A stretch of 64,000 nucleotides of DNA, from positions 333,536 to 397,535 of the forward strand of contig NZ_DASRTN010000008.1 of the NCBI RefSeq assembly GCF_035655895.1, read 5' to 3'. Shown here piece by piece: positions 5,139-63,482 of the stretch (position 1 is its first letter; each line of letters opens with the position of its first letter). The notes under the pieces were generated by a model. It had not been told where the DNA came from. It searched no databases and worked only from the letters and a program-made list of their open reading frames with translations. The position numbers were made by a program, and so were the translations under genes. Source of the stretch: Ramlibacter sp. (GTDB lineage: Bacteria > Pseudomonadota > Gammaproteobacteria > Burkholderiales > Burkholderiaceae_C).

Positions 5139-5257
5139 AGGCTCCCCTTCCACCTCCAGACCGGTCGGCGGCCCGCCGTGCGACCTCCCCGGTGTCGACC
5201 CGCGCGGTCGGCGCCATGGCCCCCTTTTGCCCGAAAACAACGTCCAAGGAAGAAACC

Positions 5258-6487: not shown

Positions 6488-6509
6488 ACGGCGGTCCGGA
6501 GACCTCGCC

Positions 6510-11146: not shown

Positions 11147-11256
11147 CGCGGCGGCGGCCGACCGCTTCGGGCCGGCCCGCCGGTCCGACGCCGGCGACAT
11201 GTGCGACGGCGTCAGGTGAGCAGCCGCTTCGGGGAGCAGCCCTCTCGCGCCCGCCT

Positions 11257-13449: not shown

Positions 13450-13597
13450 GGCGGCTCGAAGGTAGGAGGGCCCTGATTCTGGCTCATCTGGCGTCATTCT
13501 TCACCGGCGGACCTGACGGCACACCGAACCCGCAACGACCACCTGTCTCGACCGCTTTGCCGCAGCTGGCAATCTCTCAACGGTCCCAGGTCAGGGC

Positions 13598-13613: not shown

Positions 13614-13689
13614 GCCGGAATAGCTCAGTTGGTAGAGCAGCGCATTCGTAATGCGAAGGTCGGGGGTTCGACTCCTCTTTCCGGCACCA
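13614..13689 (+). tRNA. tRNA-Thr (anticodon CGT)
   Basis: 76-nt cloverleaf GCCGGAA...TTCCGGC-A-CCA; D arm GCTCAGTTGGTAGAGC; anticodon loop TTCGTAA; T arm GGTTCGACTCC; CCA is encoded. Confidence 0.97.
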
Positions 13690-13825: not shown

Positions 13826-16024
13826 TCAGCTGGCAGTGGGTCGACGGTCCAGCAGCTGTTCGACCAGGAGCAGGAGCTCCGAAGGCTGTGCAGGCTTGGT
13901 GAGGTGCGCGGCAAAACCCGCTTGCGCAGCCTTTGCCTTGTCGACGGCGCGTCCGTAGCCTGAGAGAGCGACGAGGCTGCCGGACCAGTCGATGCCGTTT
14001 CCGCGCGCAGCCCTGGCCAGCTCGTAGCCGTCCATCCCCGGCATCCCGATGTCGAGGATGGCGATCTCCGGCTGGAACGTCTCCAGGAGCCGCAAAGCTT
14101 CCGAAGGGTCGGCCGTGATCGTCACGTCGTAGCCGGCGATCTGCAGGATGTCGCCCACGGTCTGCAGGGCGTCCAGATTGTCGTCGACCACGAGGATCCG
14201 GCCTGACTTGCGCGACGCCGCGGGCACCGGATTCGCAGGCGATGTTTGCGGAGCGTCGATGGTGGGCAGGGTGATGTTGAAAACGCTTCCCAGACCCAGC
14301 CCGTCGCTCGAGGCCGTGACCCGGCCGCCATGCAGTTCGACGACGCTGCGCACGATGGCAAGGCCCAGCCCGAGGCCGCCGTCCGACCGGGCAAGCGGCT
14401 GGGGCGATTGGTAGAACGGTTCGAACACGTGCGCCAGCATGTCCGCCGCGATACCGATGCCCCGATCGCGGACTTCGATCTGCACCTCGCGCGACGCCGG
14501 GGTCACGCGCAGGACCGTTGGCGCCTCGCCACCGAATCGCAGAGCGTTGGTCAGGAGGTTCGAGACTGCCTGGACCAGACGGGTCTCGTCGCCTTCCACC
14601 CAGACCGCAGCCGGGGGGAGCTCGACGCGCAGGTCTCGATTCCTGTCCTCGAACGCCGGCTGGAGGGCCTCCAGGCACCGTTCGATGACCGTGAACACGT
14701 TGACGGGGCCCCTGTCCATCTGCAGCTTGCCGCGGCTGATCCTGGAGATGTCGAGCAGGTCGTCCACCAGCCGCCGCAGGTGGTCGACCTGGCGGCGCAG
14801 CACCTTCCGCTCCCGTGCGGTTGTCGCGTCCGCCTTCAGATCCAGGAGGTGCAGGACGTTGACCATCGGGGAGAGAGGGTTGCGCAGTTCATGACCGAGC
14901 ACGGCAAGGAACTGGTCCTTGGCCTGGGCCGCTTCGTCGGCTCTGGCGAGCGCGTCGCGCATGGATGCACTGCTGTCGCTCAGGCGTTCGGACGCGGCGC
15001 GCAGTGCCTGGGAGAGCTCGTCGAGTTCGACGATCCGGCTGCGCGGCACGTGCGTGGACCTGCCGTCCCCGATCTGAACCGCCGCGTCGCGGATGCGGGA
15101 GATGGCGCGCGCGATTCCGGCGGACAACCGGTAGGCGAGCAAGGCGCAGATCAGGATGGAGCCGAGGACGCCGGCGAGGTACCAGGCCAGGCTGCGTGCC
15201 AGGGCGCGATGCGCTTCCTCGACCGGCGCTCCGACCACCACCGTCCAGCCATGAGGCTTGAGCCTGGTGAAGCTGGTGAGAAGTTGGTCTCCTTCCAGCG
15301 AGGAGGTCTTGCCTGTCCCGCCGTCTCCATTCGATTCGATCAGTCTGGCGACCGAGGGATGGGCGCTCCCGCCGAGCGTGCTGTTCTGATTCTTCGAACG
15401 TGCGACACGGCGCCCGGAACCGTCGAAGACAGAGACGACCCAGGAGCCGGGAACCTGCTGCTTGCGCACGACGTCGAGAATCCGGTCGGGCTTGACCGCT
15501 GCCGTCAGGACATAGGCCAGCTTCCCGTCGACCTCGACCGGCCATCGGACCGGGAACGCCGCCCCCTCGACCTGTCCCGGCAGGACGGCGCCAACCGCGG
15601 GGCGACGCGTGGACAGCACGGCTTCGAGGCTCCGTGGATCCACCACGCGTGCATCGGCCGCACCGAAGGGGAACGCGGTCTTGAACAGGACGCGGCCCTG
15701 CGCGTCGACGAGCACCACGCCAGACCATTCGGGCCGGGCCGCCACTTCGCCCTTCATCTGCTCATAGAAGGCGGGCAGGTCGCCTGCGAGGAGCCGTGGC
15801 GACCGCCCCGCGGTGGCGAGGCTGCGGAAGGTCCAATCGATCTCGGATTCGACGGCGGATGCCAGGGCCCGGGAAAGCTCGAACGTGGAGCGCTCCAGTT
15901 GCGCTTGCTGCCCTTGCACCGCCTCCCAGATGGCCCATGCCGCCATGAGCGACATCGGCACCAGGCCGAGCGCGGCGAGTCGAAGCAGCAGCTGGCGCAG
16001 GCTCTTGGGGGAAAGGGAAGGCAT
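13826..16024 (-). CDS. hybrid sensor histidine kinase/response regulator (periplasmic Cache-like sensor)
   Basis: Two TM segments, H-box LGHELRNPL, NLLTNA, DGGLGLGL, REC domain (ILVVDDN...ILDIGMPGMDG). Confidence 0.92.
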   Translation of the reverse strand: MPSLSPKSLRQLLLRLAALGLVPMSLMAAWAIWEAVQGQQAQLERSTFELSRALASAVESEIDWTFRSLATAGRSPRLLAGDLPAFYEQMKGEVAARPEWSGVVLVDAQGRVLFKTAFPFGAADARVVDPRSLEAVLSTRRPAVGAVLPGQVEGAAFPVRWPVEVDGKLAYVLTAAVKPDRILDVVRKQQVPGSWVVSVFDGSGRRVARSKNQNSTLGGSAHPSVARLIESNGDGGTGKTSSLEGDQLLTSFTRLKPHGWTVVVGAPVEEAHRALARSLAWYLAGVLGSILICALLAYRLSAGIARAISRIRDAAVQIGDGRSTHVPRSRIVELDELSQALRAASERLSDSSASMRDALARADEAAQAKDQFLAVLGHELRNPLSPMVNVLHLLDLKADATTARERKVLRRQVDHLRRLVDDLLDISRISRGKLQMDRGPVNVFTVIERCLEALQPAFEDRNRDLRVELPPAAVWVEGDETRLVQAVSNLLTNALRFGGEAPTVLRVTPASREVQIEVRDRGIGIAADMLAHVFEPFYQSPQPLARSDGGLGLGLAIVRSVVELHGGRVTASSDGLGLGSVFNITLPTIDAPQTSPANPVPAASRKSGRILVVDDNLDALQTVGDILQIAGYDVTITADPSEALRLLETFQPEIAILDIGMPGMDGYELARAARGNGIDWSGSLVALSGYGRAVDKAKAAQAGFAAHLTKPAQPSELLLLVEQLLDRRPTAS

Positions 16025-16149
16025 GAAGGAGCAGTCGGGCAAGCGAGTCTATCTCTCAGCCCCGACCTGGGTTCCATCAGTGGCGGCGCCCGGCTTCGGC
16101 ACCGATCGCCTGCGCTGGAGATGGCCGCGGGCGACAGGCCTGCCGTTGC

Positions 16150-17994
16150 CTAGGCGCTCGGGCGCATCGGGCTCAGCCAGGCGTCCGCCTCGCCGCCGGC
16201 CTGCACGCCGGGCTGGGCGGGCAGGCGGGCATCCAGGTAGCGCAGCAGCAGGGGCAGCACGATCTCCTGGTTGCCCGGACGCGAGAAGGTGTGGTCGGCG
16301 TCGGGCACGTAGGCCATGCGAAAGCGCGGTGCGCCCTGCAGGCGGCGGCCGTCGCGGCCGAAGTGGAACTCGACGTAGTCGCGGCCATCGTCGGCGTCGG
16401 CCACCAGCATCAGCACGTCGGTGCCGCGCGCGCACAGGCGCTGCATCTTCGCGAGCAATGGTTCCTCGGCGCGGCCGAAGGCCAGCCAGCGCCGCAGCCG
16501 GGCCGCGGCCAGCGCCAGGAAGCGGCGGGCGATCAGCCGCACGTTGACCTGGCCACGCAGCACCCGGCGCCACACCGCGGGCTTGAAGAGGGCACGGCGG
16601 TAGTGGTCGCTCGACTTCGCGTACTGCTGCATCGAATCCTGCCAGCGGTCGCCGGCCCGGCCGGGCGTCCATTCAAGCAGGCGTGAGTTCATCAGCACGA
16701 TGCCGCCGACCCGCTCGTCGACCAGCGCCGTCTGGAACGCCACGTACGAGCCCGAGCAGATGCCCATGAGCACGACGTCGCGGCAGCCGCGCTGCGCCAG
16801 CGCGTCGATCGCGGCGCGCACGTCCTGCGTCGACGTCTTGGCGTAGAGATCGGCCCACGGCCGCCCCGGCGCGGGCGGACTGTCGCCGATGCCGCCCAGG
16901 TCGAGCCGCAGCACCGGATAGCCGTTGTTGGCCAGCGAGCGGGCGATGCTGGTGTAGATGCGATGCGGTCCCACGCGGTGGTTGCCGCCCACGTTCAGCA
17001 GCAGCACGCCGGTCTGCCCGCGTCGGTCCTGCCCGGTGCCGCCCGCTGGTTCGGCCAGCACGCCGACCAGGGAGGCGCCGGGGCCCGCGCGCACCACGGT
17101 CTCGCGCACCGCGCCGGTGCTGCGCCACTGCAGCTGTTCGACAGGCGCGGGTGCCGGGTCCTGGCGCACGCCGGCGGCGGGCGACGCGGCCAACCAGCCG
17201 GCCACGGCCTGCAGCGTCGGCGCGTCCAGCACGCCGGCACGCGGCTCGTCGACCATCGCGGCGTAGCCGGGCAGCACGCGGTGCTCGACCTCGGCGCCCA
17301 GCGCGCGCAGCGCCTTGGGCAGCGGGCCCTCGCCCGGCAGGTCGTCGCGCCCGACCACCAGCACCCGCTGGGCGGGCCGGCACTGCGGGCGGGTCGCGTC
17401 CAGGGCGAGCAACTGTTCCACCGTCTCGGCGGCATGCGCATGGCCCATCGCGTGCAGCGTGCCGTCCGCCTCCTGCACGCCGGCGGCCCGCAGTTCGCGC
17501 ACGAAGGCCTTGCCGGTCGGGCAGGGCGCCCACAGCAGCAGGCTGTCGACACCGCCCAGGCGCGCGGCGGTCTCGACGGCGAGCGTCGCACCCAGGCGGA
17601 TCCCGAGCAGCGCGACCTGCCGCGCCTGCGATCGCGCGCGCACCTGCGCGACCGCCGCTTCGGCGCCGGCAAGCCAGGCCTCCACCCGGCCCGGGGGCAG
17701 CGCGTCGTCGCCCGCGTCCCCGGTGCCGGGGTAGTCGAAGCGCAGGACCGGGAATCCGGCCCGCGCCAGCGCGGTGGCCAGCTGCACCTGGGTCGGGTAG
17801 CTGCAGGTCGCCTCGTGGCCGACCGGGCTGCACAGCACGACGGCCAGGTCGCGCCAGGGCAAGGCCGGCGCGTGGTACCAGCCGAAGCACCAGCCACCGC
17901 CGACGTCGAAGGTCAGGCTCGCAGGGGGCGGCGCGGCAGCAGATGCCTCGGTGGAGTCGGCGGCGGGTGCGGCGGCAGCGGGAGACGGAGTCAT
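16150..17994 (-). CDS. tandem alpha/beta-hydrolase fusion (resembles exosortase-A-associated hydrolase 2 + hydrolase 1)
   Basis: Two repeated cores: VLRFDYPGTGD...GIRLGA and VLRLDLGGIGDS...GICSGS...DADHTFS; start overlaps the GH2 stop codon (ATGA). Confidence 0.8.
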   Translation of the reverse strand: MTPSPAAAAPAADSTEASAAAPPPASLTFDVGGGWCFGWYHAPALPWRDLAVVLCSPVGHEATCSYPTQVQLATALARAGFPVLRFDYPGTGDAGDDALPPGRVEAWLAGAEAAVAQVRARSQARQVALLGIRLGATLAVETAARLGGVDSLLLWAPCPTGKAFVRELRAAGVQEADGTLHAMGHAHAAETVEQLLALDATRPQCRPAQRVLVVGRDDLPGEGPLPKALRALGAEVEHRVLPGYAAMVDEPRAGVLDAPTLQAVAGWLAASPAAGVRQDPAPAPVEQLQWRSTGAVRETVVRAGPGASLVGVLAEPAGGTGQDRRGQTGVLLLNVGGNHRVGPHRIYTSIARSLANNGYPVLRLDLGGIGDSPPAPGRPWADLYAKTSTQDVRAAIDALAQRGCRDVVLMGICSGSYVAFQTALVDERVGGIVLMNSRLLEWTPGRAGDRWQDSMQQYAKSSDHYRRALFKPAVWRRVLRGQVNVRLIARRFLALAAARLRRWLAFGRAEEPLLAKMQRLCARGTDVLMLVADADDGRDYVEFHFGRDGRRLQGAPRFRMAYVPDADHTFSRPGNQEIVLPLLLRYLDARLPAQPGVQAGGEADAWLSPMRPSA

Positions 17995-20513
17995 GCGGGA
18001 GCGTCCACCGGCACGCCGGTGCTCAGGTTGAGGGCGTGAAGGCTGCCGGCCAGCGCCGCGCCCGGCTTGCTCCGGCGCAGGCGCAGCTCGCGGCTCTCGC
18101 CGGGCGCCAGATGGAAGTGGTCGTCGTCGGGCAGCCAGCCCGGCACATCGAGGTGGACGTCGATCGCCCATTGCCGGCAGGCGACGGCGAGCACGGCCTC
18201 GTCGTCGCCGTGCAGGGACAGCCGCGCGGTCAGGCCGATGTCCGCCGCGGGGCGTGCTGCCAGCAGCGGCGCGAGCCCGATCGGGAAGTGGAGGGCGCGG
18301 GCCAGCTCGCCGCCCTGGGCATCGAGCAGGCGCACCCGGACCAGCTCGCAGGCCGGCGGGCCGAACCGCCAGGCGTGGTTCAGGTCCAGGAAGTGCTCGA
18401 GCAGCTCCGCCAGCGCCACGCTGCAGCCCGTGCGCGGCGCGAGGTCGAGGGGGCGCCGGCCACTGGCGACCAGCACCTGGCCGTCACGCCACGCGCTCAG
18501 CTCCAGGCTGGCGGCATGGGCGTGCGGCGTCTCGTTGACGACGTGCGCCACCAGCCCGTCGCCGCCTTCGTCGGTGACCAGCACCGCGAGCGGCTGCAGC
18601 ACGCGCCGCAACGCCTGCCACGACGCCTTCGGCTGGCCCGTGTCGTCGAGCACACCCCAGCCGGCGCCGGCCCACAGGTCGCGCAGCAGGAGCAGCAGGG
18701 CGCCGTCGCAGGACGATCCCGGCCGCCGCCACTCGCTGTAGGCGGCCGCCATCACCTCGGCCGTCGCCAGCCGGCCGAACGCCAGGTAGCGGTCGTGGTC
18801 CGAGTGGCGCAGCCGGGCCGGATCGACGCCGAACAGTTCGCGCACGTAGTGGTCGCGCACGTCGTCGAAGTCCCAGCCGGCGCCCAGGTCGCGCGGCGAA
18901 CGCTGCTTCCAGGCCGGGTGGTGCACGCGGGTGGCCAGGCCCCCCGGCAGCCGTTCCAGCGCCGACGGCGAGGGGATGTTGGCGAAGGCCAGGCATTCCG
19001 TGGCGAAGCGCAGTCCGCTGCGCCGCGCGTCGTCGAGCCCGCGCTCGTAGGCCCCCACGCCGTAGTAGGAGGTCGTGCCGGCGCCGGCCTGGTGCGGGAA
19101 TGCGCCGCCGTGTGCGCTGGACGGCCAGTAGACGGCCTCCGGCGCGAGTTGCCCGCACAGCGCCGGCAGCACCTGATGGAAGAACGCCGGCTGCCAGGTG
19201 TCGCGCGGCGCTCCCCACATCGCCGCCTGCTGCTCGACCTCGCTGTTGCCGCACAGGACCGCCACGCTCGGATGCGGCGCCAGGCGCTGCAGCTGCTGGC
19301 GCGCCTCGGCCACCGCACCCGCGGCGAAGCCCTCCTCGCCGAACGGATAGTCCATGTTCGCGAACATGAAGTCCTGCCAGACGAGCAGCCCGAGCGCGTC
19401 GCAGGCCCGGTAGAAGTGGTCTTCCTCGTACACCAGCGTGCCGGCCAGGCGCAGCATGTTCATGCCGGCGTCGCGCACCTGGCGCAGGGCCGACTCGCAG
19501 GCCTGCGGCGTGGAGCGCAGGCTCACCACGTCCAGCGGCGTCCAGCCGGCGCCGCGGCAGAACACCGGCGCGCCGTTGACGCGCAACTGGAAGCCGCCGC
19601 GGCTGCGGTCCACCTCGATCCGGCGAAACCCGACCGACCCCAGCGGCAGCTCCTGCCGCGTGCCGTCGCGTGCGACGAGTCGCAGGCCCGCGCGGTACAG
19701 CGCCGCCTCGCCGTGCGTGTGCGGCCACCACAGGGCCGGTTGCGCGACCTCGACGATGGCCACCGCCTCGTGCGCCGTCGCGCCGCGCACGAGGGTTTGC
19801 GCATGGCAGCGGCCCTCGGGCGCGTGCAGCACCAGCTCCGCCGATTCGAGGTCGCGCGACCAGGAGGTCGGCGGTCGCAGCCGGAGTTCGCACCGCCCGC
19901 GTCCGTCCACCAGCGACGCGCGCAGCGAGGGCTGCAGGGCCGCCCCGTCGCTCCACCAGATCCCGCGCCAGGGGCCAACGGGTGCCGCCGGAGGCGACCA
20001 CCCAGGCGTGCGGCCCAGGAGTGTTGTGCGCTGCCAGCGCAGCTGCTGGTGCGCCACCATGGGGGTGCGCCAGCGAGGACGCGGCCGGCGGCGATCGAGC
20101 TCCGGCGCGAGGGCGGCAAACCGCAGCAGGAGCTCGTTGTCGCGTTCGTTCAGCAGGTCGGCGACCGCCGCCTCGTGGGCCACGAACATGTTGTCGGACC
20201 ACAGCAGCGGCCGCCCGTTCAACCAGACCTGGGCGCGCGTGGCCAGTCCGTCGAAGCCGAGCCGGGCGGCGGCGACGCCGGGCCGGTCGAACCGCGCGCG
20301 GAACCACCAGTCCTGGGCGTCGAAGTCGCGCGGCGGCGCGTCCAGCGACCACTGGCCGAGTTCACGCAGGGCGGCGGCCACGGTCTGGGCGCACGAACTC
20401 GCCTGCCATCCGTCCTGCGGCGCCGCCTCCGTGCCGCCGGGTTCGGCCCCGCAGAACTCCCAGCGCGCCGCGAGCGGCTGCCGCGCCGGGAGGGCGGGAT
20501 GCGCCTCGCCCAT
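17991..20513 (-). CDS. glycoside hydrolase family 2, beta-mannosidase-like
   Basis: FQLRVNGAPVFCRGAGW, GMNMLRLAG, GLLVWQDFMFA, HPSVAVLCGNSE (acid/base Glu), RFATE (nucleophile Glu); no signal peptide seen. Confidence 0.9.
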   Translation of the reverse strand: MGEAHPALPARQPLAARWEFCGAEPGGTEAAPQDGWQASSCAQTVAAALRELGQWSLDAPPRDFDAQDWWFRARFDRPGVAAARLGFDGLATRAQVWLNGRPLLWSDNMFVAHEAAVADLLNERDNELLLRFAALAPELDRRRPRPRWRTPMVAHQQLRWQRTTLLGRTPGWSPPAAPVGPWRGIWWSDGAALQPSLRASLVDGRGRCELRLRPPTSWSRDLESAELVLHAPEGRCHAQTLVRGATAHEAVAIVEVAQPALWWPHTHGEAALYRAGLRLVARDGTRQELPLGSVGFRRIEVDRSRGGFQLRVNGAPVFCRGAGWTPLDVVSLRSTPQACESALRQVRDAGMNMLRLAGTLVYEEDHFYRACDALGLLVWQDFMFANMDYPFGEEGFAAGAVAEARQQLQRLAPHPSVAVLCGNSEVEQQAAMWGAPRDTWQPAFFHQVLPALCGQLAPEAVYWPSSAHGGAFPHQAGAGTTSYYGVGAYERGLDDARRSGLRFATECLAFANIPSPSALERLPGGLATRVHHPAWKQRSPRDLGAGWDFDDVRDHYVRELFGVDPARLRHSDHDRYLAFGRLATAEVMAAAYSEWRRPGSSCDGALLLLLRDLWAGAGWGVLDDTGQPKASWQALRRVLQPLAVLVTDEGGDGLVAHVVNETPHAHAASLELSAWRDGQVLVASGRRPLDLAPRTGCSVALAELLEHFLDLNHAWRFGPPACELVRVRLLDAQGGELARALHFPIGLAPLLAARPAADIGLTARLSLHGDDEAVLAVACRQWAIDVHLDVPGWLPDDDHFHLAPGESRELRLRRSKPGAALAGSLHALNLSTGVPVDAPA

Positions 20514-20520
20514 CGGGATC

Positions 20521-20778
20521 TCAGCCGGCGATGAGTTCGCGCAGCGCCCGCTCGATCGACGCGATGCTGCGGAAGACGTTCCGCTTGAGCATGTGGTCGG
20601 GGAACTCGACTTCGAACTCGCCTTCCAGCGCCAGCATGACGTTCACGCTGGCGTGCGAGGTCATCCCGGACTGGTACAGATCGTCGTCGTTGGACAGCTT
20701 GTCGACGTCGACACCAAGGCGAGCATGGTCGCGCAGGATGCGGCGGATCGCGGTTTCAGCATGAAGCAGGGTCGTCAT
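20521..20778 (-). CDS. acyl/aminoacyl carrier protein
   Basis: 85 aa; DDDLYQSGMTSHASV with the phosphopantetheine Ser; LEGEFEVEFPD. Confidence 0.92.
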   Translation of the reverse strand: MTTLLHAETAIRRILRDHARLGVDVDKLSNDDDLYQSGMTSHASVNVMLALEGEFEVEFPDHMLKRNVFRSIASIERALRELIAG

Positions 20779-20793
20779 GCATGGGAATTTTGA

Positions 20794-21210
20794 TCAGCGC
20801 CCTAGCTCGTCCCTGTCGGACAGCGCCGCAACCACGGCCGCAGCGTAGTCGCCGTCATGGCTCAAACAGACTATGCAGCGCGCAATGCCTGCCGCGCGCG
20901 CCGCCTGCGCCGCGACACCATGCAGCACCAGCTCGCAGCTGCCGTCCGCGTGCCGTCGCACTTCCATCTCGCGCCAGTTCACGCCGGCCTCGCTCAGGCC
21001 CACTGCCTTGATGGTCGCTTCCTTCGCCGCGAAGCGGGCTGCCAGCCGTTGTGCGTGCTGGTCCGGTGCGCTGCGTGAATAGGCGATCTCGCCCGGCGCG
21101 AACAGCCTGCCTTCGAACCGCTCGCCGAACGCGCGCAGCGATTCGGCGATGCGCGGGATGTGCACGATGTCGATGCCGAGTCGGACGACGCCCGACAGGT
21201 CTGAAGGCAT
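20794..21210 (-). CDS. acpS: holo-[acyl-carrier-protein] synthase (AcpS-type PPTase)
   Basis: LGIDIVHIPRI, LAARFAAKEATIKA, CLSHDGDYAAAVV. Confidence 0.9.
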   Translation of the reverse strand: MPSDLSGVVRLGIDIVHIPRIAESLRAFGERFEGRLFAPGEIAYSRSAPDQHAQRLAARFAAKEATIKAVGLSEAGVNWREMEVRRHADGSCELVLHGVAAQAARAAGIARCIVCLSHDGDYAAAVVAALSDRDELGR

Positions 21211-21333
21211 TCCGCCCGTGAGAGATTCGATGAGTTGGTGGCTGTGCAAATTGCCCATTCGATCGCCCCACGAGCGTGCAACGCGGTGCTATTGTCCTTC
21301 GCACATTCTCATGCATGGGAGACCAAGGCAGTC

Positions 21334-22506
21334 ATGGAATCTCACTCTGCACCGGCGTTCGCCGAGCTCATCGAAGCTGTGCGCAAGGTGGCCACGGAAG
21401 TTGCATCGGCGCACGCCGCCGACGTCGACGCGAAGGCACGCTTTCCCATCGAGACGCTGGCCGCCTTGCGCGAGGTCGGCGTGCTCGCGGCGGCCGTCCC
21501 GCGAGCGCTCGGCGGCCCCGGCTGCAACGTGCAGGAGCTCGCGCAGATCTGTTCCACGCTGGCGCAGGCCTGTGGGTCCAGCGCGATGGTGCTGGCGATG
21601 CACTACATCCAGCTGGCCTGCCTGGCGCGCCACGGAATGCACAGCGCGTTCTTCCGCGGCTACCTGAAGGACCTGGTGCGCCGGCAGGACCTGCTGGCCT
21701 CGATGACGTCCGAGGTCGGCACGTTCGGCGACACGCGCTCGAGCATCTGCGCGGTGCGCCGCAGCGACGGCCGCTTCCAGCTCGACAAGGATGCGACCAC
21801 CGGCTCCTACTGCGCCCACGCCGACGCCATCCTCGTGACCTGCCGGCGCGACGAGGACGCGGCCCGCAGCGACCAGGTGCTGGTGCTCGTGCGGCGCGAG
21901 GACTGCACCCTCACCCAGACCACCAGCTGGGACACGATGGGCATGCGCGGCACCTGCAGCCCCGGCTTCAAGCTGGCCTCCAGCGGACGCGAGGAGCAGA
22001 TCCTCCCTGGTGCCTTCGCGGACAGCTCGGCCCAGACCATGGTGCCGTACTCGCACATCCTGTGGGCCTCGCTGTGGTGGGGCATCGCCGCGGGCGCCGT
22101 GGCCCGCGCCGCCAGCTTCGTGCGCGGCCAGGCCCGCCAGACACCCGGCAGCGTGCCGCCCACCGCCGCGCGCCTGGCGCAACTTCAGGTGCAGTTGCAG
22201 GCGGCCAGGCAGAACTGGCTCGGTGCCGCGCGCGATTTCGACGCGGTGGCGGAGGACCGCGACGAGCTGATGGGCATGGGCTGGGCCCTGCGACTGAACA
22301 ACCTGAAGATCGCCGCGTCGGAGGCCACGCCCCAGATCGTGCACGGCGCGCTGCAGATCGTCGGCATCCTGGGCTACAAGAACGACAGCCCGTTCAGCCT
22401 GGGCCGCCATTACCGCGACGCCCTGTCGGGCTCGCTGATGATTTCCAACGAGCGCATCGCCGCCAAGAACGCATCGATGCTGCTGGTCTACAAGGACGCC
22501 GCCTGA
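21334..22506 (+). CDS. acyl-CoA dehydrogenase family protein (probably acts on carrier-bound substrate)
   Basis: AADVDAKARFPIETL, SMTSE, WDTMGMRGTCS, ALQIVGILGY; coupled to the ligase gene by TGATG overlap. Confidence 0.88.
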   Translation: MESHSAPAFAELIEAVRKVATEVASAHAADVDAKARFPIETLAALREVGVLAAAVPRALGGPGCNVQELAQICSTLAQACGSSAMVLAMHYIQLACLARHGMHSAFFRGYLKDLVRRQDLLASMTSEVGTFGDTRSSICAVRRSDGRFQLDKDATTGSYCAHADAILVTCRRDEDAARSDQVLVLVRREDCTLTQTTSWDTMGMRGTCSPGFKLASSGREEQILPGAFADSSAQTMVPYSHILWASLWWGIAAGAVARAASFVRGQARQTPGSVPPTAARLAQLQVQLQAARQNWLGAARDFDAVAEDRDELMGMGWALRLNNLKIAASEATPQIVHGALQIVGILGYKNDSPFSLGRHYRDALSGSLMISNERIAAKNASMLLVYKDAA

Positions 22507-23420
22507 TGGACACCCGCACCTACGACATCGACAGTTTCTCCGCGAGCCTGGTCGAGCACGGCCTGATCGTGCCCACCGGCATCCGCGGTGCCTACGGGCG
22601 GGGCCCGGCCTTCGAGGACATCCTGCGCCGCTTCGACGACCTGGTCACGCGCACCGCGGCCCCGGACGGCGCCCGCGAGCTGATGTTCCCGCCGATCCTG
22701 GCCCGCGCCATGATCGAGAAGGTCGGCTACATGGACAACTTCCCGCAGCTCGCGGGCTCCATCCACAGCTTCACGGGCACCGACGCGCAGGCCCGCGAGC
22801 TCTCGGCCAGGGTGCACGCCGGCGAGCGCTGGGAGGACATGCTCGCGCCCACCGACGTGATGCTCACGCCGGCGGCGTGCTATCCGGTGTATCCGACCTT
22901 CAGCGGCACCCTGCCGGAGGGCGGGCGGCTGGTCACGGTGATGAACTGGGTGTTCCGCCACGAGCCGTCGGACGAACCGACCCGGCTGCAGCACTTCCGC
23001 ATGCGCGAGTACATCCGGGTCGGCCGCCCCGACGACGTGGTGGCCTGGCGCGACGCCTGGCTGCAGCGTGGCCTGCGGCTGCTCGAGGGCCTGGGCCTGC
23101 CGGTGCAGAGCGACGTGGCGTCCGATCCGTTCTTCGGGCGCGCCGGCAAGATGATGGCCGCCAACCAGGTCGACCAGCGCCTGAAGTTCGAGATCCTGTG
23201 CCCGGTGATCTCGCGCGAGAAACCCACCGCGATCTGTTCGTTCAACTGGCACCAGGACCACTTCAGCTCCAAGTTCGGCATCCGCAACGCCGACCAGACG
23301 GCGGCGCACACTGCCTGCCTGGGCTTCGGGCTGGAGCGGGTGACGCTGGCCCTGATCAAGGCGCACGGCTTCGATCCGGCTGACTGGCCGCAGAAGGTGC
23401 GCGCCCAGCTGTGGCCCTGA
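22506..23420 (+). CDS. amino acid:[carrier protein] ligase (class II aaRS / atypical SerRS homologue lacking the tRNA-binding domain)
   Basis: 304 aa; class II motif 2 FRHEPSDEPTRLQHFRMREY and motif 3 HTACLGFGLER; candidate Zn ligands in PAACY, MREY and HTAC. Confidence 0.9.
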   Translation: MDTRTYDIDSFSASLVEHGLIVPTGIRGAYGRGPAFEDILRRFDDLVTRTAAPDGARELMFPPILARAMIEKVGYMDNFPQLAGSIHSFTGTDAQARELSARVHAGERWEDMLAPTDVMLTPAACYPVYPTFSGTLPEGGRLVTVMNWVFRHEPSDEPTRLQHFRMREYIRVGRPDDVVAWRDAWLQRGLRLLEGLGLPVQSDVASDPFFGRAGKMMAANQVDQRLKFEILCPVISREKPTAICSFNWHQDHFSSKFGIRNADQTAAHTACLGFGLERVTLALIKAHGFDPADWPQKVRAQLWP

Positions 23421-23445
23421 CCACGCCCGCCATCGGACCCCTGCC

Positions 23446-24438
23446 ATGAGCACCATCGCCGTCCTGCCCGGGCTGACCCCCGAGAGCTACCGCCGGCACC
23501 CGCTGCACGGCGACAGCGCCGCGTGGCCCGAGAAGAACTGCTACGCCGACCTCTGGATCGGCTTCCTGCACACGCTCGGCCTGGAGCCGCTCGCGATGCT
23601 GGCGTTCACGGTGGCCGTCGATTTCGAGGGCGACCAGTGGACGTTCTTCAAGCCGCCGCTGGACGAACTGCGCGCGCTGTTCGGCGTCGACGTGCAGGAG
23701 CTCACCGTCTGGCGGCCGCTGGTCGAGCACGCGAAGGAACACCTCGCGGCCGGCAAGTTGATCAGCACCGAGTCCGACGCGTTCTGGCTTCCCGACACGG
23801 CGGGCACCGACTACCGGCGCAGCCACACCAAGACAACCATCCTCCTGGCCGACCTCGACCTGCAGCGCGAGCGCCTGGGCTACTTCCACAACGCCGGGTA
23901 CTACGAGCTGGCAGGGGAGGACTTCCGCCAGCTGTTCCGGCTCGATGCCGGCCCGGACCCGGCCTTCCTGCCGCTGTTCGCGGAGGTGGTGCGCATCGAC
24001 CGCATCGTGCGCCGGTCGTCGTCGGACCTGTCGGACATCTCGTTCGAGCTGCTGCGCAAGCACTTCGCCTGGCGGCCGCGCAGCAATCCGTTCTCGCGCT
24101 TCGCCGCCCGGATGCTGCAGGACCTGCCGGCACTGCAGGAGCGGGGACTCGCGCACTACCACCAGTGGGCGTTCGCCTCCATCCGCCAGGCCGGCGCCGC
24201 CTTCGAGCTGCTGGCGGCCCATCTGCGGTGGCTCGCCACCCAGGGCTATCCGGAGGTGGGCGAGTCGGCCCAGCGCTTCGAGGCGATCGGCCAGGCGAAC
24301 AAGACACTGATCCTCAAGGGCGCCCGGGCGGTGAACTCGGGCAGGGCTCTGAACGCCGACGACCTGCTGCAGGCCATGGCGGCCGACTGGGAGCGCGGCA
24401 TGGCACTGCTCGGTCCGCTGCTGGCCGAGCCGTGCTGA
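23446..24438 (+). CDS. DUF1839-like protein
   Basis: EKNCYADLW, DFEGDQWTFFKP, DAFWLPDTAGTDY, LGYFHNAGYY; I recall this family as the usual neighbour of aa:CP ligases. Confidence 0.75.
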   Translation: MSTIAVLPGLTPESYRRHPLHGDSAAWPEKNCYADLWIGFLHTLGLEPLAMLAFTVAVDFEGDQWTFFKPPLDELRALFGVDVQELTVWRPLVEHAKEHLAAGKLISTESDAFWLPDTAGTDYRRSHTKTTILLADLDLQRERLGYFHNAGYYELAGEDFRQLFRLDAGPDPAFLPLFAEVVRIDRIVRRSSSDLSDISFELLRKHFAWRPRSNPFSRFAARMLQDLPALQERGLAHYHQWAFASIRQAGAAFELLAAHLRWLATQGYPEVGESAQRFEAIGQANKTLILKGARAVNSGRALNADDLLQAMAADWERGMALLGPLLAEPC

Positions 24439-24459: not shown

Positions 24460-26145
24460 TCAGAACGACCAGCCGGCCTGCAGCAGCAGGCGGCCGCGCG
24501 AGGCCTCTTCGCTGCGCGCCTCCTGGCCCTGCAGCCGGTAGGCCCACCAGGCCTTGACGGTCAGCCCCTGCGGGTGCGCGGCCGACCAGCCGAGGCCGAC
24601 GTCGCTCAACGTGCGCGACGGATCGGACTTCACCGCGCGGGCGGTGGCGACATTGGTGAACGCCAGCCATTGCTGCTGGAAGCCGCCCACGACCGGCAGT
24701 GGCCGGCCCAGCTCCAGCCGCAGCGCCGTGGCATCGCTGCCACTGAGTTCGCCGGGCGGATAGGCCATCACGCCACCGGCACCCGCCACCGACAGGCGCT
24801 CGCTGGAATCGAGGTTCTTGCCGCCCAGTGCGGTCTGGTGGCGCAGGCCCGCCGTCAGCGTGAACTGGTGCGGCAGCATGGTCAGCCGCGACAGCGACAG
24901 GTTCAGCTTGCTGAAACGGCCATCGGTGTCGGGCCCGCCGGCGGCCTGGTCGAACTGCAGGGCGGTCTCGCTGCGGATGTCCAGCACACCTGCGGTCAGC
25001 GTGGCGCTGGCCTGCGTGAGGCCTTCGCGGCCCAGCAGCTTGCGGTCGTCACGCAGGCCCAGCGTGGCGCTCAGCGCGTCGGAGCGCTTGGGCGTCACGG
25101 TCGACGTGCTGCGGATCTCGTCGCGCAGGTCCTTGTGCGACAGGGCCAGGCCGGCCTCCACGGTCTGCGCCTCGGTGCGCTTGACGGGGTAGCTCAGGGC
25201 CAGGTCCACCGCGTCGGCACGCCCCACCACGCCTAGCGGCGCGAACACGCCGGCCAGCTCGTAGGTCGTGCGCGACACGGCGGCCTCGCCGCGCAGGCCG
25301 TTCGGTGCCAGGCTCGCCGAGTAGGCCAGGCGGCCGTTCAGCAGGTCGCCCGACCGGGTGGCGAGACCCGAAGCCGACAGCCGGTCGCCGCGTCCGCTGG
25401 GGGAGTTCCAGTCCCAGCGCGCGCTCAGGCGCTCGCGGCCGGTGTAGCGCGAGCCGTGGTTGTCGACCAGCACGTAGCCGGTGTGGCGGCGGGTGGCGGC
25501 CGTCTCCACGGCGAAGTCCGAGGTGCCGACTGCCTGGCCTGGCATCACGTCGGCGCGGACGACGCGCACCCCGGGCGTGTCGTTGATGATGAGCATGGCG
25601 CGCTCGAGCGTGTCGGTCGAGACGATGTCGAACTTCTTCACGTCGTCGAGCATCGCCTGCACGATGTCGTCCGCCACCAGCGAGCCGTTCTTCAGGACGA
25701 AGCGGCCGTAGTTGCCTTCGACCGCGCGCAGCGTCACCACGCCGTCCTTGATCTCCTGCTGCGGCACGTAGACGCGTGCGACGAAGTAGCCGCGTGCGCG
25801 GTAGAAGCGGGTCAGGCGCGTGGCGACCTCCTCGATCTGCGCCAGCGTCAGCGGCTTGCCGGCGGCGCCGGCAATCTCCGCCTGCAGGCTGGCAGTGTCG
25901 ATCTCGCGGTTGCCCACGAGCTCGAAGCGCTGGACGGCGATCTCGCGGCCGCCGCGCGGCAGGGCCGCCATCGGCGGCTCGGTCGGCTTGCCGCCCAGCG
26001 CGGGCAGCGGTGCGGCGGGGCGGCTGGGCAGCGGCTGCGGCAGCTGCTGCAGCACGGTGCCGGCGTCGGGCACGGCCTGCGCGTGCGCCAGCTGGAAGGC
26101 CGACAGCACGGCCAGCGAGAGGGTGGTTCTTCGGACGAGGGACAT
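24460..26145 (-). CDS. two-partner secretion transporter TpsB (ShlB/FhaC/HecB family)
   Basis: Signal peptide (AHA-QAVPDAG), POTRA region (YRARGYFVARVYVPQQ), DNHGSRYTGRERL, C-terminal barrel strand LLLQAGWSF. Confidence 0.92.
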   Translation of the reverse strand: MSLVRRTTLSLAVLSAFQLAHAQAVPDAGTVLQQLPQPLPSRPAAPLPALGGKPTEPPMAALPRGGREIAVQRFELVGNREIDTASLQAEIAGAAGKPLTLAQIEEVATRLTRFYRARGYFVARVYVPQQEIKDGVVTLRAVEGNYGRFVLKNGSLVADDIVQAMLDDVKKFDIVSTDTLERAMLIINDTPGVRVVRADVMPGQAVGTSDFAVETAATRRHTGYVLVDNHGSRYTGRERLSARWDWNSPSGRGDRLSASGLATRSGDLLNGRLAYSASLAPNGLRGEAAVSRTTYELAGVFAPLGVVGRADAVDLALSYPVKRTEAQTVEAGLALSHKDLRDEIRSTSTVTPKRSDALSATLGLRDDRKLLGREGLTQASATLTAGVLDIRSETALQFDQAAGGPDTDGRFSKLNLSLSRLTMLPHQFTLTAGLRHQTALGGKNLDSSERLSVAGAGGVMAYPPGELSGSDATALRLELGRPLPVVGGFQQQWLAFTNVATARAVKSDPSRTLSDVGLGWSAAHPQGLTVKAWWAYRLQGQEARSEEASRGRLLLQAGWSF

Positions 26146-26180: not shown

Positions 26181-29100
26181 TCACTTGCGGATCACGAAGA
26201 GCTGCTGCTCGACGCCACCGGGCAGGCGCACGCCGCCGTTGACGATGTGCACGCGGCTGTTGCGGCTGGCGGGAACGCGCACCTCGGCGCTGGCGCCGGG
26301 CATGCGGTCGGAGCCGGCGACGGTGCCTTCGGACGCGGACCCCTGCGACGCCGTGCCCGACGAAGCGGACGAGGTCGCGGAACCGGTCGAAGCCGAGGCA
26401 GGCGACGAGGACGTGGAGGACGGGGAGGCACCGGCACCCTCCTGGCCGGCGCCGAGCATCTCGCGTGCCTGGCTCAGGCTCACAGCGGTGTTGGGCGTGT
26501 CGCCGTCCAGCGTCGGCGTGACGAGCAGGTCGCCGGCGGCGCCGGGCAGCTGCGGGGCGCCGTGGGGCAGGGACACCACCTGGCCGGGCACCGGGCCGGC
26601 GGTGCGGACCGGCTCGGGCGCGGCGGGCAGGGCGGCCGGGAGGCTGACGGTGATGGTCTGCGCCACCACGTTCTCGATCACCGGCGACACCGGCACCGGG
26701 ACCGGGACGGGCGGCTGGGCGACCACCACCGGAGCCGGCGGCGTGCCCGGCACGGTGACCACGGTCGGCGCCACGATCTCGGTGCCGCCGCCGGCGACGA
26801 CCTGGTCGACCAGCGTGCCGATCGCCGACAGCGGGGCGGCGCCGTAGTACCAGGTGACCTGCCGGGTGGCCCCGGCCGCCATCGAGCCGTAGTTCATGAA
26901 GATGCCGTAGGAGCCGTCCTGGACCGGGGTGACGACCTGCGACACGCGCGGGTCCTTGTTCACCACGTTGCCGAAGCTGCAGCAGCGGTCGGTCACCGTG
27001 TCGGCATCGATGTTGGTCGAGTGGAACAGCACCGCCGAGCCGGGCGTGCCGGCGGTCGACGGGTTGAACTCCGAGATGATGATCGAGCGCGCCTGCTGCG
27101 ACGCCGTGGTGATCGCCTCGAAGCCGTTGGCGGTGATGTTGCCCTTGGTCTTGACGTTGGCGTCGCTGATGGCGACGTAGTCGTCGCGGGTGCCGACCCA
27201 CATCCGCACGTTGTCGGCCGCGGCCGCGCCGGTGTTGATGGTGCGGGTGACCGCCTTGACGAAGCGGTCGCCGGCGGCCAGCGAGTAGTCGTGCGTCATG
27301 CGCAGCGTCTCGCCCGTCACCGGCGCGGTGACGTCGTACGCCACCCGGACCACGCCCACGCCGTTGCCCAGTCCGGAGGCATCGACCGACAGGCCCGATA
27401 TCGCGGGCGCCAGGCTGGTGTTGCCACGGTCGGTGGACAGGACCGTGCCGGCGTTGTTCCAGCCGCTGGTGGATGAGCCGCCCACGCCGACGGCCATGTC
27501 CATGTCGTAGTTCCAGTAGGTCAGCTTCATCCACTGGGCCAGGGTGGGATCGAAGTAGAACGGCTGGCGCAGGTTGCCGGCCGCGTTGACCGAGTCGGTC
27601 AGGCCGTTGCCGATCGCCAGCAGACCGTTGTCGATCGTGTTCGTGGTGACCTGGGTGAGGGCCGTGTCGCTGTAGACCTGCAGCTTGTAGCCGCCACCGG
27701 CCAGGCCGAAGTGCGAGCCGTCGACGTTCAGGCCATCGGCCGCCTGCGCCACGTCGTACAGGCTGGCCTGGTGCGCGTCGCGGTAGGCCGCCACGGTGGT
27801 GGTGGCCGGATCGACATTGGCCAGGTCGGACTGCGTCGCGTTCTGCTTGACCAGGATGCGCAGGTCGGCCCGGCCGGCAAAGGCGACCGAGCTGTCCTCG
27901 ACGGTGACCGCGTCGCCGGCGCGCAGCGTCAGCGCGTTCGGGCCGGCGGCGTTCGTCAGGCGGATCGCTGCGCTGTTGATGTTCAGCGAGTCGGCGGCCT
28001 CGATCGTCATCGTGTTGCCCGCGTTCACGCTGGTCTGGCTCGCGGGCGTGATGTAGGCGCTGCCCGCCGGCGGCCGGTAGGCACCGCTCAGGTTGACCTG
28101 GCCCGTCGCCCGCACGGCCACGGCATCGGTCGCGGTCCACTGGATGCCGGGGTTGTTGCCGAAGGACAGGTTCGCGACGTCGGCCGTGATCCGGGCCGCA
28201 TCCACATGGGTGTTGGCGCCGACGTCGACGTCCTTGCCGAACAGGTCGACGCGGCCGCCGTTCGCGGCCAGCGCGACGCCGGTGCCCAGCGTGATGTCGA
28301 CCAGCCGGTCGTTGGACGGCACGCCGGCGGCGAGTGCGCCGCCCAGCACCAGGTTGCCGCCGTTGGTGGCGACCGCCGCGTCGGCGGCCAGCGTGATCGA
28401 GGCCGCATTGCCGCCGCCGTTGTTGGCGGACAGCAGGACGTCGAGCTTGCCGGCCGTCGAGCCGATGGACACGCCGGCGTCGAGCACGATGCTGTTGTGC
28501 GCCTTGAGCGTGAGGGAGGTGTCGCCGCCGGCAGTCTTGGCGATGCTCTCGCGCACCAGGATGTCGCCGTTGCCGGCGGTGCCGGCACCGCAGCCGGCCA
28601 CGCCGGTGCAGGAGGCGCCGCCCACGGCGGTCTCGATGGTCACGTTGCCGTTGGCCAGCGCGGCGCCGAGCGCGGCGCCGCTGATGTCGCCGCCGGCGCC
28701 GATGACGAAGTCCTCGGGGTCGATCAGCCACTGGCCGTGCGTGCCGGCGGCGGCGCGGGTGGTGACCGTCGCGTCGGCGGCGATGCCGACGCGGGCGGCG
28801 CTGGTCTCGACGAAGCCGCCGTGGCCGCCCTGCGGTGCGCTGGCGTCCAGGCGTCCGCCCACCTGGATGGCGTCGGATTGCAGTCCGCCGAGCAGGTAGA
28901 TGCGGCCTTCCTTGTCGGCGACGGTCTGCGCGCGGATCTCGCCGGTGTTGTTCACCACGGTCGACATCACGTCGTCGAGGCCGCGCGCCGTCAGCACCAC
29001 CAGGCCGCCGTCGGCCAGGATGGCCTGCTTGTTCGCGACCATCGCGTCGAGCACGCCACGGTCGACCGTCACGCCCACCAGGGACGAGCCGTTGAAGTTC

Positions 29101-29786
29101 AGGCTCACCTTGTCGCCGGCGGCCAGCACGGCGGCGCCCAGGCGGGCGGTGATCACGCCTTCGTTCACCACCTGGCTGCCCAGCAGCGCGACGTGGCCGG
29201 CATCGGCGGCGCGCAGCTGGCCCAGGTTGATCACGCCGGCCCGGCTGCCGTTGGCGCTGAACTGGCTGCGGCCGGCCATGAAGTCGGCGTCGCTGATGTC
29301 GAGGGTGCTGGCCACCAGGCCGGCGGCGTCGACCTGCGCCGTGCGGCCGAACAGGATGCCATTGGCGTTGAGCAGCCAGACCTGGCCGTTGGCACGCAGC
29401 GCGCCGTCGATCACGGAGCGCTCGGTGCCGACCACCCGGTTGAGGATGACCGCGGCGGCGTCGGGCTGGGCGAAGGTCACCGAGGCGCCGCTGCCGATGC
29501 TGAAAGACTGCCAGTTGATGGCGGCGCGCTGCGAGCCCTGGGTGACCGTCAGGGCGTTGCCCTGGGCCTGGATGCTGGCCTGGCCGGCGGTGACCGTGCC
29601 GCCGGTGGGCAGCACGCCCGGTGCCTGCTGGGCGGCCGCGGCGATCGCCGTCAGCGCGAAGGCCGCCACGGCGGCCCGGGCGGCGGTGGTGGCGCTGCTG
29701 GACCTGCCGCGGCCGGGAGCGGCTTCGGAGACGGCGACGTGTGCACCCAGGCGGGCGTTCCAGAGGGTCTTGTGGATGCGGTTCAT
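26181..29786 (-). CDS. TpsA filamentous haemagglutinin-family exoprotein/adhesin
   Basis: Extended signal peptide MNRIHKTLWNARLGAHVAVSE; secretion domain (INWQSFSIG, ILNRVVG, ANGQVWLLNANG); GGFVETSA, QWLIDPEDF; Pro- and Ser-rich C-terminal linkers. Confidence 0.92.
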   Translation of the reverse strand: MNRIHKTLWNARLGAHVAVSEAAPGRGRSSSATTAARAAVAAFALTAIAAAAQQAPGVLPTGGTVTAGQASIQAQGNALTVTQGSQRAAINWQSFSIGSGASVTFAQPDAAAVILNRVVGTERSVIDGALRANGQVWLLNANGILFGRTAQVDAAGLVASTLDISDADFMAGRSQFSANGSRAGVINLGQLRAADAGHVALLGSQVVNEGVITARLGAAVLAAGDKVSLNFNGSSLVGVTVDRGVLDAMVANKQAILADGGLVVLTARGLDDVMSTVVNNTGEIRAQTVADKEGRIYLLGGLQSDAIQVGGRLDASAPQGGHGGFVETSAARVGIAADATVTTRAAAGTHGQWLIDPEDFVIGAGGDISGAALGAALANGNVTIETAVGGASCTGVAGCGAGTAGNGDILVRESIAKTAGGDTSLTLKAHNSIVLDAGVSIGSTAGKLDVLLSANNGGGNAASITLAADAAVATNGGNLVLGGALAAGVPSNDRLVDITLGTGVALAANGGRVDLFGKDVDVGANTHVDAARITADVANLSFGNNPGIQWTATDAVAVRATGQVNLSGAYRPPAGSAYITPASQTSVNAGNTMTIEAADSLNINSAAIRLTNAAGPNALTLRAGDAVTVEDSSVAFAGRADLRILVKQNATQSDLANVDPATTTVAAYRDAHQASLYDVAQAADGLNVDGSHFGLAGGGYKLQVYSDTALTQVTTNTIDNGLLAIGNGLTDSVNAAGNLRQPFYFDPTLAQWMKLTYWNYDMDMAVGVGGSSTSGWNNAGTVLSTDRGNTSLAPAISGLSVDASGLGNGVGVVRVAYDVTAPVTGETLRMTHDYSLAAGDRFVKAVTRTINTGAAAADNVRMWVGTRDDYVAISDANVKTKGNITANGFEAITTASQQARSIIISEFNPSTAGTPGSAVLFHSTNIDADTVTDRCCSFGNVVNKDPRVSQVVTPVQDGSYGIFMNYGSMAAGATRQVTWYYGAAPLSAIGTLVDQVVAGGGTEIVAPTVVTVPGTPPAPVVVAQPPVPVPVPVSPVIENVVAQTITVSLPAALPAAPEPVRTAGPVPGQVVSLPHGAPQLPGAAGDLLVTPTLDGDTPNTAVSLSQAREMLGAGQEGAGASPSSTSSSPASASTGSATSSASSGTASQGSASEGTVAGSDRMPGASAEVRVPASRNSRVHIVNGGVRLPGGVEQQLFVIRK

Positions 29787-49167: not shown

Positions 49168-49170
49168 TCC

Positions 49171-57838: not shown

Positions 57839-57911
57839 GCGGCTGAGCCGCCGTCCTCTTCATCATCCGGTGTGGCGTCCATGCCGGGCGCCTGAGAGCT
57901 GAACGACAACG

Positions 57912-59726: not shown

Positions 59727-59734
59727 GCACGACG

Positions 59735-63451: not shown

Positions 63452-63482
63452 AGGGGGCCTCCGCGAGCGCGGAGGCCGGCGG

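Follow-up and report, generated by a model that had tools for sequence, protein, structure and literature searches.

Ligases that join amino acids to carrier proteins (aa:CP ligases) are known from Bll0957 of Bradyrhizobium and Atu2573 of Agrobacterium (Mocibob et al. 2010, 2013; PDB 3mey, 4h2s), which have Zn ligands, lack a tRNA-binding domain and are encoded beside a cognate carrier protein. The characterized members load glycine or alanine (PMC5370406), while the role of the group is described as unknown in a review (PMC9437257) and has stood open since 2010. A survey of papain-like enzymes from 2023 noted in its supplement that proteobacterial DUF1839 genes adjoin genes for glycoside hydrolase family 2 (GH2) proteins, aa:CP ligases, acyl-CoA dehydrogenase (ACAD)-like proteins and acyl carrier proteins (ACPs), with no mention of a holo-ACP synthase (AcpS) gene or of a hydrolase pair (PMC10318531). 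Our literature search found no paper naming a product for this cassette. Here we analysed a 64-kb stretch of a Ramlibacter sp. genome (contig NZ_DASRTN010000008.1; hereafter the window), in which positions 16150–24438 hold a typical member of this widespread, already noted and uncharacterized cassette. Its ligase shares the fold and family of Bll0957 and Atu2573, at ~45–50 % identity. Enzymes of this family charge the phosphopantetheine arm of the neighbouring carrier protein and not tRNA.

Several known systems follow a comparable logic. Small amino acids are placed on dedicated carrier proteins for surface modification by AlmEFG (lipid A glycylation in Vibrio) and DltABCD (D-alanylation); these differ from the window cassette in having ANL-type loaders and membrane transferases that are absent here, and in lacking a flavoprotein, a GH2 enzyme and a papain-like ligase. 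The butirosin system (BtrI/J/K/O/V/H/G) resembles the cassette in its stand-alone carrier protein, its loader outside the non-ribosomal peptide synthetase (NRPS) class, the flavin-dependent oxidation of a tethered group with a reductase partner and the papain-like transferase acting on a sugar amine. It differs in its BtrJ, which is of the ATP-grasp type, and in its luciferase-like BtrO, and it has neither a GH2 enzyme nor a hydrolase pair.

In our preferred reading, in which we place about even confidence, the cassette encodes a cytoplasmic, NRPS-independent, carrier-protein-based tailoring pathway. This reading starts from the observed gene identities, conserved catalytic residues, a fold relationship and a conserved gene neighbourhood.

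Gene content and arrangement of the cassette

The G+C content of the window was ~71 % and mechanical open reading frame lists were crowded, and a single frame per stretch was chosen by third-position GC periodicity. Seven coding genes were backed by this periodicity and by family matches, arranged as follows.

16150–17994, minus strand: tandem alpha/beta-hydrolase, 614 aa, a fused pair of hydrolase folds
17991–20513, minus strand: GH2-like protein, 840 aa, beta-mannosidase-like
20521–20778, minus strand: ACP, 85 aa, NF005480 at 105 bits against a cut-off of 72, with a PP-binding match
20794–21258, minus strand: AcpS (holo-ACP synthase, an AcpS-type phosphopantetheinyl transferase), Pfam ACPS E 1.3e-16, TIGR00556
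21259–21333, no strand: short spacer separating the divergent arms, 75 bp long (123 bp with Met17 as the AcpS start)
21334–22506, plus strand: ACAD-like flavoprotein, Pfam Acyl-CoA_dh_N, _1 and _2
22506–23420, plus strand: aa:CP ligase, 304 aa, NF005479 at 412.4 bits against a cut-off of 357
23446–24438, plus strand: DUF1839 protein, Pfam E 3e-106, a papain-like domain plus a helical bundle

As read on the sequence, the left arm is joined by a 15 bp gap (acpS/ACP), a 7 bp gap (ACP/GH2) and an ATGA overlap (GH2/hydrolase), and the right arm by a TGATG overlap (ACAD/ligase) and a 25 bp gap (ligase/DUF1839). The two divergent, coupled arms of an initial annotation of this DNA were thus recovered with the same coordinates, gaps and overlaps. 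The only uncertain start among the seven genes was that of AcpS: its first ~24 residues are not conserved, so the true start may be Met17, at 21210, which would give the longer spacer.

No Pfam match to condensation (C), adenylation (A), ketosynthase (KS) or acyltransferase (AT) domains was found among the scanned gene products of the 64-kb window (~34.9–37.5 and 42.1–45.0 kb unannotated), in agreement with the earlier description of a cluster free of NRPS and polyketide synthase genes. The 75-bp spacer contained no sigma-70-like site, terminator or Rfam family. A promoter and terminator scan returned zero promoter-like sites and a single terminator-like site, counts not above those from shuffled sequence, and an Rfam scan of 13–27 kb (E up to 1) matched a tRNA alone and no riboswitch that might name the amino acid.

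Conservation across genomes

To identify related loci, one genome per species was scanned with the ligase alignment, giving 80 loci with ligases 55–87 % identical to the query; gene content was then read from tblastn searches of the window proteins against these loci. The closest ligases were from Ramlibacter (Comamonadaceae), and over 6,600 database clusters (90 % identity) matched the ligase at E up to 1e-10. The 80 loci span the Beta- and Gammaproteobacteria, Myxococcota, one Chloroflexota genome and one Gemmatimonadales genome, and alphaproteobacterial carriers were also found (Azospirillum and Rhizobium replicons). The cassette is conserved in at least four bacterial phyla.

Of the 36 loci that extend 7.5 kb or more to each side, 35 have ACAD, 34 have DUF1839, 32 have GH2 and 30 have the hydrolase pair. 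DUF1839 and GH2 occurred together in 32/36, and GH2 was never seen without DUF1839. AcpS was found in 27 of 37 long related loci. No further gene family recurred in more than 10 of the 80. For the same gene set, at least four gene orders were found across the 80 loci.

Order 1: divergent, as in the window
Order 2: AcpS, ACP, ACAD, ligase, DUF1839, GH2, alpha/beta-hydrolase
Order 3: ACAD, ligase, DUF1839, AcpS, ACP, GH2, alpha/beta-hydrolase
Order 4: ACP, GH2, (alpha/beta-hydrolase), ACAD, ligase, DUF1839

Because the related loci share ancestry, this shuffling of gene order is a stronger argument for one unit than the counts are. The co-occurrence of GH2 and the tandem hydrolase with the ligase core, on which the initial annotation had staked its proposal, is kept across phyla despite the shuffling. 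This supports the seven genes forming one functional unit. The same annotation had also called the pathway complete and self-contained, which is overstated, as no acceptor-making or export gene is conserved.

The cassette is carried on chromosomes as well as megaplasmids, in soil bacteria, plant associates and symbionts. The annotations of plasmid p2 of Azospirillum brasilense Sp7 and of pBRH01 of Mycetohabitans rhizoxinica show the full set, in which the hydrolase is fused (603 or 616 aa), and a Rhizobium plasmid has a five-gene version.

Three loci had irregular gene copies. Two ligase copies (4753–5649 and 6751–7656) flank DUF1839 in locus L043. The ACAD gene of the Chloroflexota locus (L072, 8793–9950) contains an in-frame stop, either a pseudogene or an assembly error. 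In L004, a metagenome-assembled genome, the alignments of GH2 (5415–7879) and of DUF1839 (10906–11869) are each broken into two neighbouring pieces, suggestive of frameshifts.

Predicted carrier protein activation and amino acid loading

The AcpS protein scored 84.8 bits against TIGR00556 (cut-off 45.4) and 61.1 bits against TIGR00516 (cut-off 59.8). The predicted phosphopantetheine site of the ACP is Ser41 in the motif G-M-T-S (20656–20658), which is kept in 67 orthologues.

The ligase has a class II core of seryl-tRNA synthetase (SerRS) type and no tRNA-binding domain. Its best solved relative was Bll0957 (E 1e-78), with the alignment confined to Bll0957 residues 50–328 and the SerRS core. 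The Zn ligands C125, E153 and C271 (Cys/Glu/Cys) are conserved in 81 sequences. With both NF005479 and NF005480 above their cut-offs and the two genes adjacent, the ligase and ACP are predicted to be a cognate SerRS-like aa:CP pair, as previously suggested. Gly273 of the window ligase differs from Bll0957, which is Gly-specific and has Ala at this pocket position; all cassette-type ligases, including alphaproteobacterial, Burkholderiaceae and Priestia sequences, read C-[VIL]-G-F-G where Bll0957 reads C-V-A-F-G. The A281G exchange in Bll0957 is said to widen its specificity to Ala and Ser. Because of this Gly in the pocket, the candidates for the loaded amino acid are Ala, Gly and Ser.

A variant on plasmid p-LAD4 of Priestia aryabhattai (L082, 7133–15692) has the order acpS, ACP, ACAD, ligase, DMT transporter, ATP-grasp enzyme, hydrolase, alanine permease (AlaP) and alanine racemase, with no DUF1839 or GH2. 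This variant shows that ACP, ACAD and ligase form a deeper core. The adjoining alanine genes are a hint that alanine is the substrate there, and the variant also hints at different downstream chemistry.

In three further loci from Ramlibacter and Stagnimonas (L006, L007 and L077), which also have no DUF1839 or GH2, the ligase gene is followed by a gene for a large protein (3366–7937 in L007) with formyltransferase, AMP-binding, luciferase-like monooxygenase (LLM) and carrier protein domains, which may be an alternative acceptor module.

DUF1839 as a probable papain-like ligase

An AlphaFold2 model of the DUF1839 protein, built from 36 homologues, had a pLDDT of 91. Foldseek searches against the PDB gave full-length matches only to AziU2/U3, CtaG and CcbD (TM 0.5–0.63, probability 1.0). 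The model has the bipartite fold of papain-like ligases, with a papain-like N-domain and a helical C-domain. Cys32 (23539–23541), the predicted nucleophile, is placed by the model at the N-terminus of the first core helix (32–43), and at least 97 % of 67 orthologues retain it.

Both CcbD and CtaG belong to the papain-like amide ligases that depend on a carrier protein, and the CtaG paper assigns BtrH to the CtaG class. In the lincosamide pathways, CcbD/LmbD transfer a prolyl group bound to a carrier protein onto a Cys and then onto an amino-sugar amine, with Cys-His-Glu ping-pong catalysis in CcbD (PMC12945683). Between the DUF1839 model and CcbD the match is full-length (TM ~0.5–0.56), with a sequence identity of only ~15 %. 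CcbD has a canonical site and DUF1839 a predicted permuted C-(T/S)-H site, and the lincosamide carrier proteins CcbZ/LmbN are loaded by an NRPS A domain whereas the cassette loader is derived from an aminoacyl-tRNA synthetase. CtaG (closthioamide) and AsbE (petrobactin) likewise combine papain-like and helical parts with an N-terminal Cys; they differ in their aryl donors and triad, and in the carrier-bound acceptor of CtaG. DUF6005, reported as a remote homologue of DUF1839 (PMC10318531), appears from its described gene neighbourhood to be AsbE.

On the structural model, DUF1839 would work like the CcbD/CtaG-type ligases and share their fold. It is not filed in their sequence families because it lacks a BtrH_N sequence match and has a predicted permuted triad. 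The butirosin-like logic proposed for this locus at first annotation is strengthened by the Foldseek match to CcbD and CtaG; its other part, transfer onto a sugar, stays at the level of a proposal.

The ACAD-fold flavoprotein

The flavoprotein is equally close in sequence to short-chain ACADs and to DszC and the nitrososynthases DnmZ, KijD3 and ORF36. Its best solved profile matches were butyryl-CoA and short-chain acyl-CoA dehydrogenases (E 1e-26 and 8e-24), a ranking that does not discriminate between dehydrogenase and oxygenase. No canonical Glu base stands at either of its known positions, those of medium-chain acyl-CoA dehydrogenase (MCAD, E376) and isovaleryl-CoA dehydrogenase (IVD, E254). 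The MCAD position, seven residues after the conserved R-D-A motif, is Ile370 or a variable residue, and the IVD position is the invariant Ser240-His241. Met369, Asn372 and Arg374 are also invariant. In five gammaproteobacterial loci, in two arrangements, an HpaC/C1-type flavin reductase gene lies no more than 535 bp from the cassette.

Because the Glu base is absent and flavin reductases adjoin the cassette in these loci, we favour the flavoprotein being the oxygenase of a two-component flavin system acting on aminoacyl-S-ACP. The simple dehydrogenase first annotated, detectable as a −2 Da shift, is for the same reasons probably not what this gene encodes.

The GH2 glycosidase and the tandem hydrolase

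The closest solved structures to the GH2 protein were beta-mannosidases (5n6u at E 4e-56, followed by 6byc and 2vjx), and both catalytic Glu residues are kept, bearing out the original call of a beta-mannosidase-like enzyme. Glu506, the nucleophile, is invariant, and at least 85 % of sequences keep the acid/base residue Glu425, which lies in C-G-N-S-E. The usual Asn-Glu pair of the acid/base motif (WxGNNE) is replaced, with an invariant Ser424 where Asn is usual. No signal peptide was predicted for the protein, and it is likely to be active and cytoplasmic. The presence of Ser424 may reflect a substrate differing at C2.

In the tandem hydrolase, the N-terminal half matched hydr2_PEP (TIGR03101) at 95 bits against a cut-off of 203, and the C-terminal half matched hydr1_PEP (TIGR03100) at 157 bits against 168. 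The same succession of best matches, hydr2_PEP then hydr1_PEP and below the cut-offs, was found in five other lineages, fused or split. Across loci the pair is fused in 26 and split in the remainder, with the 2-then-1 order always kept. Because both curated cut-offs were missed, the pair is placed by these matches as a sister clade of exosortase-A-associated hydrolases 2 and 1.

An AlphaFold2 model of the protein (pLDDT 85) has two hydrolase folds, and its Foldseek matches were generic esterases and lipases only. The tandem character noted previously therefore holds for the folds, but just one half looks catalytic, with Cys rather than Ser, and the other has Arg at the nucleophile elbow. The C-terminal half has an invariant Gly411-x-Cys413-Ser-Gly415 motif and an equally invariant Asp567-His568 pair. 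In the N-terminal half the elbow is an invariant Gly131-x-Arg133-x-Gly135, with no Ser/His pair and no catalytic His in the window copy. The predicted Cys nucleophile argues for a thioester intermediate, and so for transfer, or for the clearing of carrier protein, over simple hydrolysis of an ester.

The described XrtA/PEP-CTERM module (acyl-CoA ligase, ACP, pyridoxal phosphate-dependent decarboxylase and hydrolases 1 and 2; TIGR03098–03101) resembles the cassette in setting a hydrolase 2-then-1 pair beside a loader and a carrier protein. The cassette differs from it in having a loader like an aminoacyl-tRNA synthetase, no decarboxylase, an often fused pair and, in the window, no XrtA context. 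A literature search on exosortase-associated hydrolases returned nothing relevant.

Two loci, L022 and L078 (Steroidobacteraceae and another gammaproteobacterium), have the cassette within an XrtA locus. In both it abuts the PEP-CTERM-box response regulator PrsR (TIGR02915, 594–608 bits against 503) and the XrtA-system priming glycosyltransferase (TIGR03013, 560–572 bits against 393). Nearby genes include those for a sugar aminotransferase, GT2 and GT4 enzymes and a UDP-sugar dehydrogenase. AT3 membrane acyltransferases abut or sit within the cassette in ~10 loci. Together, the XrtA loci, the AT3 neighbours and the hydr2/hydr1 kinship point to glycan decoration in some lineages.

Proposed pathway

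From the gene functions above we infer a pathway whose amino acid, oxidation chemistry, acceptor, order of steps and product are based on homology, structure prediction and gene context, with biochemistry limited to the ligase/carrier-protein reaction of relatives. The 85-aa carrier protein would be converted to its holo form by AcpS. A small L-amino acid would then be adenylated and thioesterified to the carrier by the SerRS-derived, Zn-dependent ligase. The ACAD-fold flavoprotein, a putative functional analogue of BtrO/BtrV, would modify the tethered aminoacyl group, most likely as a two-component oxygenase, resulting in hydroxylation or N-oxygenation, with classical alpha,beta-dehydrogenation less likely. 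The acyl group could next pass to Cys32 of DUF1839 and, by ping-pong transfer, to an acceptor with a free amine; the parallel with CcbD and BtrH makes an amino sugar or glycoside the likeliest one, and the GH2 beta-mannosidase-like enzyme might make or trim that glycoside. The Cys413 half of the hydrolase may form a second acyl-thioester, off-loading or relaying the acyl group or clearing a mis-loaded carrier, with the Arg133 half as a presumed non-catalytic binding partner. In some lineages, the product may feed an XrtA/PEP-CTERM exopolysaccharide.

The ties of DUF1839 to CcbD/CtaG-type ligases, of the flavoprotein to two-component oxygenases and of the hydrolase pair to XrtA-associated hydrolases turn a gene list into defined assays. 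The possible gain is a new thiotemplated route of aminoacyl transfer, and a function for DUF1839 and hydr1/hydr2, two widespread families of unknown role. Further-reaching, and in our view fairly unlikely, is the idea that the cassette is the missing physiological context of aa:CP ligases, in which a loader derived from an aminoacyl-tRNA synthetase and standing in for the NRPS A domain, an ACAD-fold oxygenase, a DUF1839 enzyme amidating an amino sugar and off-loading Arg/Cys hydrolases would together place an oxidized aminoacyl group on an exopolysaccharide. If true, this would involve N- or C-oxygenation of a tethered amino acid, would make the hydrolase 2/1 pair a general off-loading device for carrier proteins that the cassette shares with XrtA/PEP-CTERM systems and would amount to a Gram-negative counterpart of D-alanylation.

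Weighing of alternatives

Several observations weigh against a glycan- or glycoside-tailoring pathway with an oxygenase step. The exopolysaccharide linkage was found in a minority of loci (6–10 of 80), the window not among them, and a cytoplasmic GH2 enzyme has no obvious place in a biosynthetic route. No acceptor-synthesis or export genes were conserved among the related loci. These loci are also not phylogenetically independent, so that counts over them are not independent events. In sequence the flavoprotein is equally near to true short-chain ACADs and to monooxygenases, and the flavin reductase neighbour was found in just 5 of 80 loci and is not adjacent in the window. None of 36 DUF1839 proteins gave a BtrH_N or DUF6005 sequence match at Pfam E up to 10, and DUF1839 has been modelled with a permuted C-(T/S)-H site and not a canonical triad (PMC10318531). 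Among public sequencing runs, this sequence was present in one DNA run (an algae metagenome) and in zero RNA runs.

The same cassette could operate with the flavoprotein as a true acyl-carrier-protein dehydrogenase, which would turn alanyl- or seryl-S-ACP into a dehydroalanyl, iminopyruvoyl or pyruvoyl (or amino-oxo) thioester for subsequent transfer. The butyryl-CoA and short-chain acyl-CoA dehydrogenases among its best solved matches, the translational coupling of the ACAD gene to the ligase gene through the TGATG overlap and the alanine permease and racemase beside the Priestia ACP-ACAD-ligase core would all suit such an enzyme. With no Glu base at the MCAD position (Ile370 or variable) or the IVD position (Ser240-His241), and with flavin reductases adjoining five loci, we regard a dehydrogenase as somewhat unlikely. 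A small diffusible metabolite unrelated to glycans, such as an N-acyl amine or short peptide with GH2 serving only pro-drug activation or self-protection, appears improbable. CtaG, AziU2/U3 and, by literature assignment, AsbE do act in small-molecule pathways, no glycosyltransferase is conserved among the related loci, and in variants DUF1839/GH2 are replaced by an ATP-grasp enzyme and a DMT transporter or by a formyltransferase-A-LLM-T protein. Set against this, GH2 accompanies DUF1839 in 32/34 loci and never occurs without it, and has no signal peptide, no exporter is conserved, and the cassette is embedded in XrtA/exopolysaccharide loci in L022 and L078.

Envelope aminoacylation in the manner of AlmEFG or DltABCD, with ACP-borne Gly or Ala passing to lipid A, a lipid or a surface polymer, would fit the Gly or Ala loaded by characterized aa:CP ligases (PMC5370406) and the AT3 membrane acyltransferases adjoining ~10 loci (the Mycetohabitans neighbour being annotated just as 'acyltransferase'). 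It leaves the flavoprotein, GH2 and DUF1839 unexplained, and no AlmG, DltB or DltD homologue or other membrane protein is conserved or, in the window, adjacent, making it very unlikely. That the genes are chance neighbours, or that GH2 and the hydrolases form a separate catabolic unit, is barely conceivable given that gene content is kept through at least four gene orders across phyla and that junctions overlap or nearly do so.

Genomic surroundings

The flanks of the cassette hold a LysR regulator, an RND efflux system, two hybrid histidine kinases around a tRNA-Thr and a ShlB/TpsA pair. The tRNA-Thr (anticodon CGU; 13614–13689, plus strand) lies between paralogous hybrid histidine kinase/response-regulator genes (11257–13497 and 13826–16042, both minus strand). 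The second of these shares its strand with the hydrolase gene, ends 107 bp downstream of it and is not a conserved cassette neighbour. On the other side, a two-partner secretion pair, comprising a ShlB/FhaC-type transporter (24460–26145, minus strand) and a TpsA exoprotein with ESPR and TPS domains (26181–29786, minus strand), lies 21 bp past DUF1839, on the opposite strand, and is absent from 80/80 related loci. The flanking histidine kinases, ShlB and TpsA were excluded as cassette parts, as they do not recur beside it in related loci.

A free-standing aminoacyl-tRNA editing-domain protein (YbaK/ProX type) is encoded at 49168–49662 (plus strand), 26 kb from the cassette, and no link between the two was found. 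An Omp85-family gene (57903–59726, plus strand) is followed by a very G+C-rich region (59723–64000, 75–79 %) with long open reading frames lacking a Pfam match; together, 57903–64000 could be a TamA/TamB-like pair running off the window.

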